From: an archaeon | Lineage (GTDB): Archaea > Nanobdellota > Nanobdellia > Pacearchaeales > GW2011-AR1 | DNA: 19,987 nucleotides | Direction: 5' to 3' | NCBI GenBank assembly: GCA_043810775.1 | Contig: JBDRNU010000004.1 | Span: forward strand, 1-19,987 | Shown: positions 1,246-18,241 of the stretch, piece after piece | Numbering within the stretch: position 1 is the first letter of the stretch | How the letters are laid out: each line of letters starts with the position of its first letter | Notes under the pieces: generated by a model | What the model saw: only the letters and a program-made list of their open reading frames with translations | Database searches by the model: none | What the model was told of the DNA's origin: nothing | Program-made: the position numbers and the translations under genes

Positions 1246-1668
1246 ATGGCAACAGACTCAATTAAGGCAAATCTTAAAAGAACAGATTCTCATACTGAAT
1301 TTTATGAAAATGTTGCAGAACCTGCCAAAGAATATTTTAAAAAACATCCAGGAGATGAAGACCTTGCAGCTTACATTACTTGTATAACTTATACTAGAGA
1401 TGAAAGAGGAGATGAAGAGTTGAATATGGTATTAAGTGTGCGAAAATCAGTTTATGCTTCAATATCAGCAACTAGTGATGAACACAAAATAGATATCTGT
1501 CCTAATGTTAAAATAGACGACAAAAAAGAACATATGGCAAAATCAAGAGAAGCAATTGCAAGATTAGCTCCAGGAACAATGGAGTTTATTCTTCAAAGTG
1601 AAACCCTGTCAAAAGAAGCAAAATCACTAATTGATGCTGTTTACTCTTTATTAAAACCTTCAGATTAA
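1246..1668 (+). CDS. hypothetical protein (140 aa)
   Basis: ATG at 1246 is 1 nt after the upstream TAA (TAAAATG), so it is preferred over the TTG at 1207. Its stop overlaps the gyrA stop (TTAA). Confidence 0.65.
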
Positions 1669-8820: not shown

Positions 8821-9123
8821 TTATTTAGATTTCTCAACTTTATAATCACCAAGATCACCAGAAATAATTGCAATACAACTGCAAGGAATTTTTAAACCAG
8901 CTACAATTCCTAATTTTTGCTTGCTGTCTACTTCTTCAAATTTTATTCCTTTTTCATTGCATAGTGCAGGAATATGCTGAACTATTTCCTTTGGTTCAAC
9001 ATCTTTAGCTACAACAACTAGTTTTGCTGTACCTCTCTCTATAGATTTAGTAACTTCATTTATTCCTTTGTCAATTTTTCCAGTTTTTCTTGCTTTTTCA
9101 ATTATATTATAGAAGTCCGCCAT
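8821..9123 (-). CDS. rpl7ae: ribosomal protein L7Ae (K-turn binding protein, 100 aa)
   Basis: KGINEVTKSIERGTAKLVVVAKDVEP. ATG at 9123 has a GGAGGT Shine-Dalgarno at 9128-9133. Confidence 0.95.
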   Translation of the reverse strand: MADFYNIIEKARKTGKIDKGINEVTKSIERGTAKLVVVAKDVEPKEIVQHIPALCNEKGIKFEEVDSKQKLGIVAGLKIPCSCIAIISGDLGDYKVEKSK

Positions 9124-11282: not shown

Positions 11283-12389
11283 ATGATTAAGGATTTTAGT
11301 TCAAGAATTCTACCTGCTGGGAAAGCGGACTATATAAAGCAAAGACTTCCAGACGGAACAATTGAAGATGTCTGCCTTTGTACTCATACCTCAAGATTTA
11401 CCTTTGGTTGTGAAGCTCAAGTTTCGGGAAGATTCGGAATTCCAGAAGAAGTAGTCAGAAATCATGGCGAATATTCAGAAGGAAATATAAATATCTACAG
11501 ACAGCTAGGAATTCATGATTTAAGATGTGATGGTTGTTACGCTAGAAAAATGGGAAGAAGAAGCAACTGGGGCAAAACTAATTCAGGTCATGTTAATTCA
11601 AAAACAAGAGCAGATTTTGAAAAATATAAACCATCACAAATCAGGCTAGGAGTGCTAGTTGAATGTGGATATCTCCCATTATACGGGCATGTGCTAAATG
11701 ATTTTCTAGGCTTATGCGAAGAATATTCCTCTAGAGTAATTCTTCCCACAAAAATGCTGACATTCGGGAAAGAATCATTAATCGACATGAAACATCTCCT
11801 CCCAGATATGCTAAAAAGTCTTCCTACAGCAGAAGAACTAGTCGAAAAATTCAAAAATACAATGTCAGTAGTTAATTTTAGTATTTATAATCCTAAATTT
11901 GAACCAGGCCTAGTTTCACAAGGATTTACCTCCAATAGAAGAATGAAAGAAGCAGAAAAGTTCTATCAATCCGGAGTTAACACAACAATTACTCAAGTCT
12001 GTGATGTTACAGCTTCAATAGAAGATAATATTTCAAGGGGATTTCCAATAGATGATGTTATAATAATGCACGATGAACTTGGAATAATAATGAGAATAAT
12101 TCCACTAAGAATTACAACTAAAAAATTTGCACAACAAGCAACAGGAAAAACTTGGGAAGAACTAATTTCATCTAAAGATTATAAACTAAAAGGAAATCAT
12201 GAAATCATCCCTAACTTTCTTCATCCAGATTTTCAAGCTCTAATAGAATCTGGGGTAGGTTTTTGCGGAAGAATTGGGACTATAGAATACTGTGACCATT
12301 GCAATCTCGATAAAGCTAAAATAAGTTTTCCAGCATCTGAATTAGCTCCTGATAGAGATAAAATAAAAAAACGCAGAAAAATAGTCTAA
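11283..12389 (+). CDS. putative atypical radical-SAM-like Fe-S protein (spore photoproduct lyase-like resemblance)
   Basis: GC(43)-X38-C(82)DGC(85)YAR, then IRLG, LPTK and NFSI segments at spacings resembling SplB-like proteins; C-terminal CG...YCDHC. ORF is well supported; family is inferred. Confidence 0.5.
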   Translation: MIKDFSSRILPAGKADYIKQRLPDGTIEDVCLCTHTSRFTFGCEAQVSGRFGIPEEVVRNHGEYSEGNINIYRQLGIHDLRCDGCYARKMGRRSNWGKTNSGHVNSKTRADFEKYKPSQIRLGVLVECGYLPLYGHVLNDFLGLCEEYSSRVILPTKMLTFGKESLIDMKHLLPDMLKSLPTAEELVEKFKNTMSVVNFSIYNPKFEPGLVSQGFTSNRRMKEAEKFYQSGVNTTITQVCDVTASIEDNISRGFPIDDVIIMHDELGIIMRIIPLRITTKKFAQQATGKTWEELISSKDYKLKGNHEIIPNFLHPDFQALIESGVGFCGRIGTIEYCDHCNLDKAKISFPASELAPDRDKIKKRRKIV

Positions 12390-12432: not shown

Positions 12433-12579
12433 TTACCTTTTCTTTTTCTTCTTAACAGCTTTCTTTTTCTTCTTGCCGCCTCTGGCCATCTTTGCTTCAC
12501 AGACATTTCCTTTACCGTCTACGTAATATAGGTAACCAGACTTCCTCTTAATAACATTTTTTACAAGTACTTTTCCCAT
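12433..12579 (-). CDS. small highly basic protein (48 aa), absent from the ORF track; candidate nucleic-acid-binding protein
   Basis: Hand translation: MGKVLVKNVIKRKSGYLYYVDGKGNVCEAKMARGGKKKKKAVKKKKKR*. GGAGGT SD at 12584-12589, TATA at 12673-12680, T-rich tract after the stop. Confidence 0.85.
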   Translation of the reverse strand: MGKVLVKNVIKRKSGYLYYVDGKGNVCEAKMARGGKKKKKAVKKKKKR

Positions 12580-12672
12580 TTTTACCTCCTTTTTCTTAGT
12601 CTTCAAAACGTTAGTTTTGGATGAAACAGAAAATATTATTTTCTGTGTCTTAAAAAATTCACGACGAGGAAG

Positions 12673-12704
12673 TATTTAAACCTTTCGAAGAAAGATTTAA
12701 AATA
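12673..12704. promoter_or_regulatory. back-to-back divergent BRE/TATA promoters
   Basis: Minus strand CGAAAGGTTTAAATA (12687-12673); plus strand GAAAGATTTAAAATA (12690-12704). Confidence 0.6.
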
Positions 12705-12712
12705 ATTAACTG

Positions 12713-12846
12713 ACTCAACACAGGAAGTTAATGAGTTGTGCTGTAAGCACGACAGTTGGAAACCTCCTAAACCGCAAAAATGCTCTTTCATTCTTGCATT
12801 TTTGGGGCACAGAGTAGCGAAACATCAGTGAGCTACTCTGTTGGGT
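12713..12846. ncRNA. candidate structured ncRNA of unknown family (strand uncertain, plus slightly favoured)
   Basis: More GC-rich than its flanks and packed with helices: AGGAAGTT/AACCTCCT, GTTGTGC/GCACGAC, CAAAAATGC/GCATTTTTG, and ACAGAGTAGC/GCTACTCTGT capped by a GA...GA K-loop-like loop. TATA motif at each end. Confidence 0.5.
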
Positions 12847-12850
12847 TTAT

Positions 12851-12865
12851 CATTTAAACCTTTCT
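12851..12865 (-). promoter_or_regulatory. putative BRE/TATA promoter pointing into the structured element
   Basis: Minus strand AGAAAGGTTTAAATG directly after the DUF192 stop, the same arrangement as at 9220-9233. Confidence 0.45.
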
Positions 12866-13204
12866 CTAAATCGCAAAAAGATCAAAAACTTCTTGATACT
12901 TATTATTAAGTGGTACTTCAATTAGTTTTGAAAATTCCTTTTCAGGCTTTATGGATAAATTTCCAGGGGATACCAATTTATGCTCGACAATCTTCCCCGA
13001 GCTATCAAGCCATATAGCTATAAAAGGCATCCTAACAAAATAAGAATGAATACTCTGTCTTCCAGTTTTTGAAAACTCAAATAACAAGGCTGTAGCATCT
13101 TCCTTGTCAGTAAACATTAATCCTTTAAATTTCTCCCAGCTATTGCACTTTTTTATATTTTCAATAACAATTTCCTTGCCCTTGAAATTAAGTTTTGCTT
13201 TCAT
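12866..13204 (-). CDS. DUF192 (UPF0127) family protein (112 aa)
   Basis: KFKGLMF...LLFEF...IHSYFVRMPFIAIWLD...LIEVP. Start moved to ATG 13204. Confidence 0.8.
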   Translation of the reverse strand: MKAKLNFKGKEIVIENIKKCNSWEKFKGLMFTDKEDATALLFEFSKTGRQSIHSYFVRMPFIAIWLDSSGKIVEHKLVSPGNLSIKPEKEFSKLIEVPLNNKYQEVFDLFAI

Positions 13205-13571
13205 ATCTAGTCTCCCTAAGATATCTATTATATAACTCATTTATATTTCTTTCGCATACATAATCATGGTGCTTAAAGCCCCCTCCAAAACTCTTCGGAA
13301 TATGCATTAATTCATGTATTATAATTTTTGTTCTCTCGTCCTCACTTAATTTATCAAATCTCTCACTTAAAAATTCAAGAACATAAAACCCTTTTCTTCC
13401 AAGAGCTTTTTGCATAACCTTGTTTAAAGCATGGCATCTAGCAATAGTCCCCCTGCTTGAGCTCCCATATCCCCTAATGCAGACAACATCATCAATTTTA
13501 ATATGTGGGAATATCTTACTGACTATCTGCCTAGCTCTTTCCTGCAAATCTGGCGCAAATTCATATCTCAT
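13188..13571 (-). CDS. putative metallopeptidase (COG4900-like, 127 aa)
   Basis: HEXXH motif IIHELMHIP followed by FGGG. Start moved to ATG 13571. Confidence 0.8.
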   Translation of the reverse strand: MRYEFAPDLQERARQIVSKIFPHIKIDDVVCIRGYGSSSRGTIARCHALNKVMQKALGRKGFYVLEFLSERFDKLSEDERTKIIIHELMHIPKSFGGGFKHHDYVCERNINELYNRYLRETRYESKT

Positions 13572-18133: not shown

Positions 18134-18241
18134 GAGCCTGTAGCTCAGCCAGGTTAGAGCTCTGGTCTTATATGACCCTATCTCGTTAGAGATAGAAGCT
18201 AAGACAGCCAGAGGTCCCAGGTTCAAATCCTGGCAGGCTCA
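18134..18241 (+). tRNA. tRNA-Ile(UAU) with a 33-nt intron at 37/38 (18173-18205)
   Basis: Acceptor GAGCCTG/CAGGCTC plus A73; D stem GCTC/GAGC; anticodon stem CTGGT/GCCAG with CT-TAT-A; T arm CCAGG-TTCAAAT-CCTGG; BHB helix CTTA/TAAG with 3-nt bulges; CCA not encoded. Confidence 0.9.

Follow-up and report, generated by a model that had tools for sequence, protein, structure and literature searches.

The intergenic stretch 12690-12865 of the window (the whole 19,987-nt stretch of archaeal DNA analysed here) folds into a dense series of helices between a small basic protein gene and a DUF192 gene, which raises the question of whether it is the gene of a structured RNA or a folded DNA of another kind. 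The original prediction favoured the first possibility and described an unassigned non-coding RNA, possibly closed into a four-way junction, with one hairpin forming a K-loop for L7Ae and with the neighbouring basic protein as a possible partner. All the helices that it listed are present in the sequence at their coordinates:

12722-29/12761-68: predicted enclosing stem, 7 of 8 pairs formed, one A.C mismatch
12735-41/12747-53, plus strand: stem of hairpin A, 7 bp, one of them G.U
12775-83/12796-804, plus strand: stem of hairpin 3, 9 perfect bp
12809-18/12832-41, plus strand: stem of hairpin 4, 10 perfect bp, capped by GAAACATCAGTGA

The 176 nt of this stretch fold at -58.4 kcal/mol, compared with -35.1 ± 3.9 kcal/mol for shuffled sequences (z = -5.92), and none of 200 shuffles equals this value. 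Folding of the opposite strand is almost equally strong (z = -5.65), and the strong folding of both strands hints at palindromic DNA rather than at a strand-specific RNA. No match of the element to a known RNA family is found in Rfam at the gathering threshold: over the entire window, Rfam returns only two tRNA matches, both outside the element, and over 12550-12950, with E values up to 10, it returns 12 noise matches, the best of which scores 21.4 bits against a threshold of 60 bits. ARAGORN finds no tRNA within the element. Box C/D sRNAs are 50-70 nt long and have a C box (RUGAUGA) and a D box (CUGA) at their termini; there is no C box on the plus strand, and the sole snoRNA match scores 15.3 bits against a 44-bit threshold. 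In other copies, described below, loop indels shift the small reading frame that opens with the ATG at 12731, and for the same reason no reading frame is conserved between the copies. The description of a strongly structured and unassigned element is thus borne out by the fold z score, the lack of an Rfam match, and the constraint on the stems that is presented below. As a side observation on tRNAs, two tRNA genes (L002:1373-1495 on contig C9 of the same genome, and window 18134-18241) contain long introns of 50 nt and 34 nt and are detected by Rfam and missed by ARAGORN.

The view of a locus-specific non-coding RNA gene is contradicted by the distribution of the sequence, which is one copy of a dispersed repeat. 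Specifically, a BLAST search of the 176 nt against their own 995-kb assembly (hereafter G000) yields five matches with 86-100% identity, four of them at other places, including near-full-length copies on contigs C9 (93% identity) and C7 (94%) and two further places where only the first half is present. All five aligned copies have in common a 5' module (ATTAACTAACTC...CCTCCTAAA); the three long copies alone also possess the 72-nt segment 12772-12843. With an nhmmer profile, 15 copies of the 5' module are detected in G000 (E ≤ 0.016), and the 3' segment is again limited to the three long ones. The covariance model R1, which comprises hairpin H1 and hairpin A, retrieves 14 copies in G000 and 6 in G001, the only genome of the same genus, and no match in 149 other genomes of the same family (one per genus, searched with stricter filters); a BLAST search of 60 relatives returns only two 18-nt matches at chance level. 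As far as searched, the repeat family is confined to this genus of small DPANN-type archaea. Genes for tRNAs adjoin 5 of the 15 copies. Three DNA runs yield low-depth contig fragments only, and one contig lacks 12772-12843 and most likely corresponds to the short paralog at C2:22816. On contig C2 of G000 (~22750-22950), a promoter-like hairpin, hairpins A and B without H1, the promoter-like hairpin again, a full element, and the repeat once more follow each other in tandem, which suggests either that insertion recurred at one and the same duplicated target or that the array is a concatemer.

The comparison with G001 places the boundaries of the repeat at this locus, which comprises the following features:

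12433-12582, minus strand: small basic protein gene (49 aa), whose G001 ortholog has the same promoter-like motif and leader and no element
12674-12686, minus strand: proximal target-site duplication, ATTTAAACCTTTC on the plus strand and GAAAGGTTTAAAT on the minus strand, exact 13-nt direct repeat D4
12687-12851, plus strand: inserted element, 165 nt, absent from the syntenic site of G001, 93-94% identical to the C9 and C7 copies
12852-12864, minus strand: distal target-site duplication, 1 nt from the DUF192 stop codon, an extra promoter-like motif pointing into the element
12866-13240, minus strand: DUF192 gene (PF02643, E = 1e-6), whose stop codon abuts the distal duplication

In G001, the gene order (metallopeptidase, DUF192, small basic protein) is kept, the DUF192 ortholog is 69% identical, and the spacer between the DUF192 gene and the basic gene contains a single GAAAGGTTTAAAT, on which the two flank alignments of the window overlap by exactly 13 nt. 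In the window, the same 13-mer is found twice (12674-12686 and 12852-12864), around the 165-nt insert 12687-12851, and it has three occurrences in the whole genome, counting both strands. The proximal duplication continues into the flank that is common with the empty site of G001, and it would serve as the functional BRE/TATA of the small basic gene. The sequence from this motif to the start codon of the basic gene is conserved with G001, so the proximal copy probably keeps the putative promoter of that gene at its original distance.

Two other long copies tell of the same difference between the species: the C9 copy, located after a tRNA-Lys gene, is missing from the corresponding G001 site, where the genome of the window is longer by 191 nt, and the C7 copy, located between two convergent genes, is missing from a G001 site that is shorter by ~164 nt. 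Conversely, the G000 sites that correspond to two G001 copies (L034, L038) are uninterrupted. Presence and absence differ both ways between the two species, which have one insertion in common (C2:22816 = G001:C6). The long copies are 93-94% identical, compared with 68-76% for the orthologous flanks, and being more alike than the flanks they spread after the split of the two species. The G001 state at the window locus could, in principle, also have arisen via deletion between the repeats.

Flanking direct repeats that beat 200 of 200 shuffles are found at 8 of the 15 copies of G000, with lengths of 13-36 nt (the remaining 7 have no significant repeat), and at 3 of the 6 copies of G001, with lengths of 25-45 nt (none at the other 3); at the C9 copy, the comparison with its empty site reveals no flanking repeat. 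The sequences of these repeats mostly differ between copies; among them are TATA-like motifs, the 3' end of a tRNA, and a putative gene start. At several copies, the repeat takes in the first 2-14 nt of the element itself, or the promoter-like hairpin, and part of the "duplication" could be a terminal redundancy or a recombination patch. A separate observation concerns the window at 12767-12780 (CTAAACCGCAAAAA), the junction between hairpin B and the nested module, which matches 12866-12879 (CTAAATCGCAAAAA), the 3' end of the DUF192 gene, in 13 of 14 positions; this match may reflect chance or a trace of template switching.

The core of the family consists of three consecutive hairpins (H1, A, and B), to which the window copy adds a 5' extension and a module nested in hairpin B:

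12687-12704, plus strand: 5' extension GAAGAAAGATTTAAAATA, BRE/TATA-like, repeating the duplicated target in inverted orientation (inverted repeats I2 and I4, with 92% complementarity in each)
12705-12732, plus strand: hairpin H1 (ATTAACT / AGTTAAT), the best-conserved end within the family
12735-12753, plus strand: hairpin A in its short form (GTTGTGC / GCACGAC), helix 2 of R1
12760-12848, plus strand: hairpin B, split, with arms AAACC (12760-64) and GGTTT (12844-48) around the nested module
12772-12843, plus strand: nested two-hairpin module, 72 nt, at the place of the 4-nt hairpin B loop of the short copies
12775-12804, plus strand: hairpin 3, with A5/T5 arms
12809-12841, plus strand: hairpin 4, 10-bp stem with loop GA-AACATCAGT-GA, the K-loop of the original prediction

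Hairpin A occurs in a short and a long form, and hairpin B is a variable palindrome; the short copies at C2:22816, C3:42559, and C3:25732 read ...CCTCCTAAAGGTT(T)AT..., with the arms of hairpin B and no intervening module. In the R1 structural alignment of 20 copies, which was fitted to the model, 96.1% of the cells are paired and both partners are changed in 12 of the 21 pairs (a result that none of 500 shuffles attains, whereas controls with slid pairing reach only 23-43% of paired cells). H1 contributes 7 pairs, with 97.8% of its cells paired and 3 pairs changed on both sides, while in helix 2 both sides change in 9 of the 14 pairs and one T.G wobble is invariant in 20 of 20 copies, which points to the plus strand as the putative folding strand. 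Moreover, the 14 columns that vary among the three long copies are without exception unpaired (0 of 66 paired columns vary, versus 14 of 77 unpaired ones; Fisher p = 1e-4).

This alignment also bears on the competing stems at the 5' side. H1 (12705-11/12726-32) and the predicted enclosing stem 12722-29/12761-68 compete with each other: compensatory changes back H1, and the enclosing stem is possible only in the six copies that bear CCTCCT, in which it is invariant. As regards the helix ACTCAA/TTGGGT, which was thought to close the four-way junction, both strands are present, but position 12841 is claimed twice, once by this helix and once by hairpin 4. The four-way junction was rejected as a candidate fold: the C7 copy has only a weakened form of its closing helix, the short copies have none, and the predicted plus-strand start at ~12725 would lie downstream of the ACTCAA strand.

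Taken together, a multi-copy family, an empty site, a duplication, and compensated stems are found here, and 12687-12851 is very probably a 165-nt insertion of a MITE-like mobile element that lacks terminal inverted repeats (TIRs), is non-coding and non-autonomous, folds into multiple hairpins, and is flanked by long and variable duplications, its mobility being read from copies and empty sites and not from observed movement. According to this reading, the element would have landed between the stop codon of the DUF192 gene and the BRE/TATA-like motif of the basic gene, and 13 bp of the target would have been duplicated, with the consequence that the basic gene keeps its motif at the original distance. 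The element would be composite: the core is made up of H1, A, and B, and the loop of hairpin B houses a distinct module of two hairpins (72 nt). The hairpins, probably in the form of single-stranded DNA or RNA folded on the plus strand, would be recognised by some enzyme, and integration would proceed via widely and variably spaced cuts (13-45 nt) or via recombination guided by similarity to the target. A possible reason for the survival of the long duplications is that promoters, gene starts, and tRNA ends are restored by them.

The search for an enzyme that could mobilise the family covered both genomes of the genus, which are 80% (G000) and 85% (G001) complete, and detected no RVT_1, TnpB, DDE_Tnp_1, or Cas1 domain in either, where the control search for RVT_1 was positive in 3 of 14 known genomes. 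No Y1_Tnp domain was detected in the incomplete assembly of G000, and one was detected in G001, where an IS200-type Y1 transposase gene lies on a 2-kb contig (L053, G001:C33:1-1957) with GC-rich flanking hairpins. This transposase was rejected as the mover: its flanking hairpins are unrelated to the element, with a best R1 score of 8.3 bits. Each of the two genomes encodes two tyrosine recombinases, which were likewise rejected, as no copy of the element lies beside the three loci examined. Guiding to the target by the 5' extension does not hold for the whole family, since the complementarity is found in one subfamily only (C4, C2:22816 and its ortholog on G001:C6, and perhaps C16).

The genes next to the insertion were considered separately. 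The original prediction had the basic protein as a possible partner of the element, and the syntenic spacer of G001, which keeps both genes without the element, argues against such a partnership; the protein has no Pfam, NCBIfam, or PHROG family match and appears from this synteny to be a neighbour of the element and not its partner. The 5' leader of the basic gene (12590-12665, minus strand) contains two hairpins, CAGAAAAT/ATTTTCTG and CAAAAC/GTTTTG, whose stems are kept in G001 with different loops, and this leader may be cis-regulatory. On the other side of the basic gene, a 368-aa ORF (11283-12389, plus strand) belongs to no Pfam, NCBIfam, or PHROG family, and used as a query it finds no match in G001, which has a nucleotidyltransferase-like gene in its place. 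A structure search of the Atlas, with many viral look-alikes, suggests a radical SAM enzyme of the spore-photoproduct-lyase (SPL) type, and on this lead the 368-aa protein was set aside as a candidate transposase.

Among the alternatives, the one that survives best is compatible with mobility and states that the element, in addition to moving, carries a small RNA gene: a stable plus-strand RNA would be transcribed from the BRE/TATA-like extension of the element, with a start at ~12725, and would act in cis or in trans. The inward-facing BRE/TATA-like GAAAGATTTAAAATA (12690-12704) does exist as originally described, back to back with the promoter-like motif of the basic gene, and it is carried inside the insert. 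The wobble pairs favour folding of the plus strand, with 31 G.T cells versus 2 A.C cells (20 of the 31 come from the single invariant pair). In the three long copies, none of the 52 positions over 12796-12847 varies, loops included, compared with 14 of the 92 columns that precede them (Fisher p = 0.001). Lastly, 11 copies lie between co-directional genes, and 10 of them run antisense to those genes (a count that includes the correction of the C9 row for a spurious ORF over the tRNA and of the C4 row for a 49-aa gene below the ORF cut-off), and an RNA from such copies would need a promoter of its own. Such an RNA is nonetheless unlikely: a similar promoter-like extension precedes the C2:22816 copy and its ortholog on G001:C6, which amounts to only ~3 loci and is not a family-wide trait, and the family is restricted to one genus. 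Oligo-T runs terminate archaeal transcription, and the T5 run at 12799-12803 could stop the transcript before hairpin 4; the putative plus-strand transcript from ~12725 and a minus-strand transcript from ~12830, driven by the distal duplicate, would both meet the T5 run of hairpin 3.

The same hairpin is at the centre of a second and considerably less probable explanation, a domesticated insulator or terminator, in which the A5/T5 hairpin 3 would stop read-through from the DUF192 gene and from the duplicated promoter-like motif before it reaches the basic gene. Hairpin 3 has a T5 run on both strands, the three long copies are all located at the 3' ends of genes or tRNAs, and similar CAAAAATGC...GCATTTTTG hairpins recur in other genera, but the same site in G001 does without the element and the short copies do without hairpin 3.

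The K-loop concerns the nested module, which is present in 3 of ~15 copies and is identical in them save for four loop positions of hairpin 3. A K-loop follows the pattern of a canonical stem and then 5'-GA...GA-3', with tandem sheared G.A pairs. The pattern is found on the plus strand as GUAGC-GA-N9-GA-GCUAC (12814-12836), but the GA pairs are not kept in the homologs. Specifically, the covariance model R2, built on the module, gives weak matches (E ≤ 0.1 per genome) in 9 of 150 other genomes of the order, and most of these have only the CAAAAATGC...GCATTTTTG hairpin in common and lack the loop of hairpin 4. The best match (32.3 bits), in a genome of another genus (G080), has a different stem with the loop CAAACAUUUGUGAG and reads C-AAACAUUUGUGA-G, where AAACAU..GUGA is kept and the 5' GA is not. 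An RNP of L7Ae with hairpin 4, perhaps together with the neighbouring basic protein, would draw on a 5'-stem-GA-N9-GA-stem-3' compatible with tandem sheared G.A pairs, on a 13-nt loop that is invariant in three copies, on the part of that loop kept in G080 despite the differing stem, and on an L7Ae gene 3.6 kb away (8860-9114 in the window, as expected of an archaeon), yet it is very improbable: three identical copies hold no covariation information, so GA...GA is not probed by variation, the minus strand, which is the direction of the flanking genes, gives U.C and C.U instead of G.A, and G001 encodes both the basic protein and L7Ae and has neither the element at this site nor a match to the module.

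In G080, the module (L060, G080:C4 ~1501-1568, minus strand) is a 65-nt two-hairpin insertion between P3-like and P4-like (AGGAAGGTCC) parts of a locus that aligns with the RNase P RNA of G000 (L077:247-611, G000:C15; 95.3 bits, RF00373); Rfam makes no RNase P call at the G080 locus at the gathering threshold. The module may be regarded as a unit that occurs independently and is nested in the element. In other genera (L069-L076, L062; G080, G221), mosaic hairpin clusters are composed of CAAAAATGC...GCATTTTTG and TGTCAAAAA...TTTTTGAGCA units with no detectable flanking repeats, and those of G080 and G221 look like a REP/BIME-like class of repeats.

Returning to the mobile, hairpin-based element as the preferred reading, we tentatively put forward a bolder version of it, which we hold to be possible rather than probable: the family may represent a class of archaeal mobile DNA with a mechanism not yet described, in which a strand-specific folded intermediate is handled by a host or other enzyme, the cuts lie 13-45 nt apart, a promoter-complementary 5' extension may guide one subfamily, and extra hairpin modules are picked up and spread. 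In the same scheme, the GA...GA module, which also lies inside the RNase P RNA-like gene of another genus, could be independently mobile and could be a protein-bound RNA or DNA.

Genome-reduced DPANN archaea are generally regarded as poor in mobile elements, and here a single DPANN genome of 1 Mb carries ~15 copies of a hairpin element without TIRs. The long duplications copy promoter-like motifs, gene starts, and tRNA ends, which means that insertions at gene boundaries can be tolerated, and they represent a route by which reduced genomes can gain intergenic DNA, duplicated promoter-like motifs, and new RNA hairpins. Moreover, the family points to a route of transposition that has no model in the literature searched, and it is a warning for annotation, as an intergenic stretch of such a genome that folds strongly and covaries can be a mobile repeat and not a non-coding RNA gene.

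In the literature searched (listings and abstracts), no TIR-less hairpin elements with long duplications are described in DPANN archaea, and the family partly resembles several known systems. The likeness to the K-loop and K-turn motifs of L7Ae is restricted to the stem followed by GA...GA, whereas the G.A pairs are not conserved in the G080 relative. SINE-type retroposons, which move by target-primed reverse transcription, have variable-length target duplications, extra filler at one junction, and one conserved and one variable end in common with the family; in contrast, no reverse transcriptase is found in either genome of the genus, and the copies have no A-rich or LINE-like tail. To our knowledge, no SINE-type retroposons are known in archaea. 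REP/REPIN sequences and palindromes derived from IS200/IS605 are likewise based on hairpins, devoid of TIRs, folded in a strand-specific manner, intergenic, and sometimes arranged in tandem mosaics. REP/REPIN and IS200/IS605-derived elements insert without target duplication and need a Y1 transposase, which is not found in G000, whereas the family has duplications.

IS1634 and IS1549 measure 1.5-2 kb and have inverted ends. These members of the IS1634 family, of the DDE type, are similar to the present family in that they generate long and variable direct repeats on insertion, of 8-514 bp and with no mechanistic model proposed (PMC2266710). Unlike the present family, for which no DDE_Tnp_1 and no TIRs are found, they are autonomous and encode a transposase.

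Prokaryotic MITEs are non-autonomous derivatives of insertion sequences. They are credited with TIRs of ≥ 10-15 bp and target-site duplications of 2-10 bp (PMC11602168) or with TIRs of ~4-30 bp (PMC10969869), and a MITE-rich Woesearchaea genome appears in MITE catalogues, which may include sequences related to the family (PMC11602168). The family differs in that its core ends without TIRs (the sole inverted repeat, 12689-12701 with 12853-12865, is formed between the 5' extension and the target duplication), in that its duplications are 13-45 nt long and of variable length, neither short nor fixed, and in that no parent insertion sequence is found (DDE_Tnp_1 in G000 and G001, Y1_Tnp in G000, in genomes 80% and 85% complete). 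It resembles MITEs in being small (~90-190 nt), non-coding, AT-rich, intergenic, multi-copy, strongly folded, flanked by direct repeats, and variably present between relatives.
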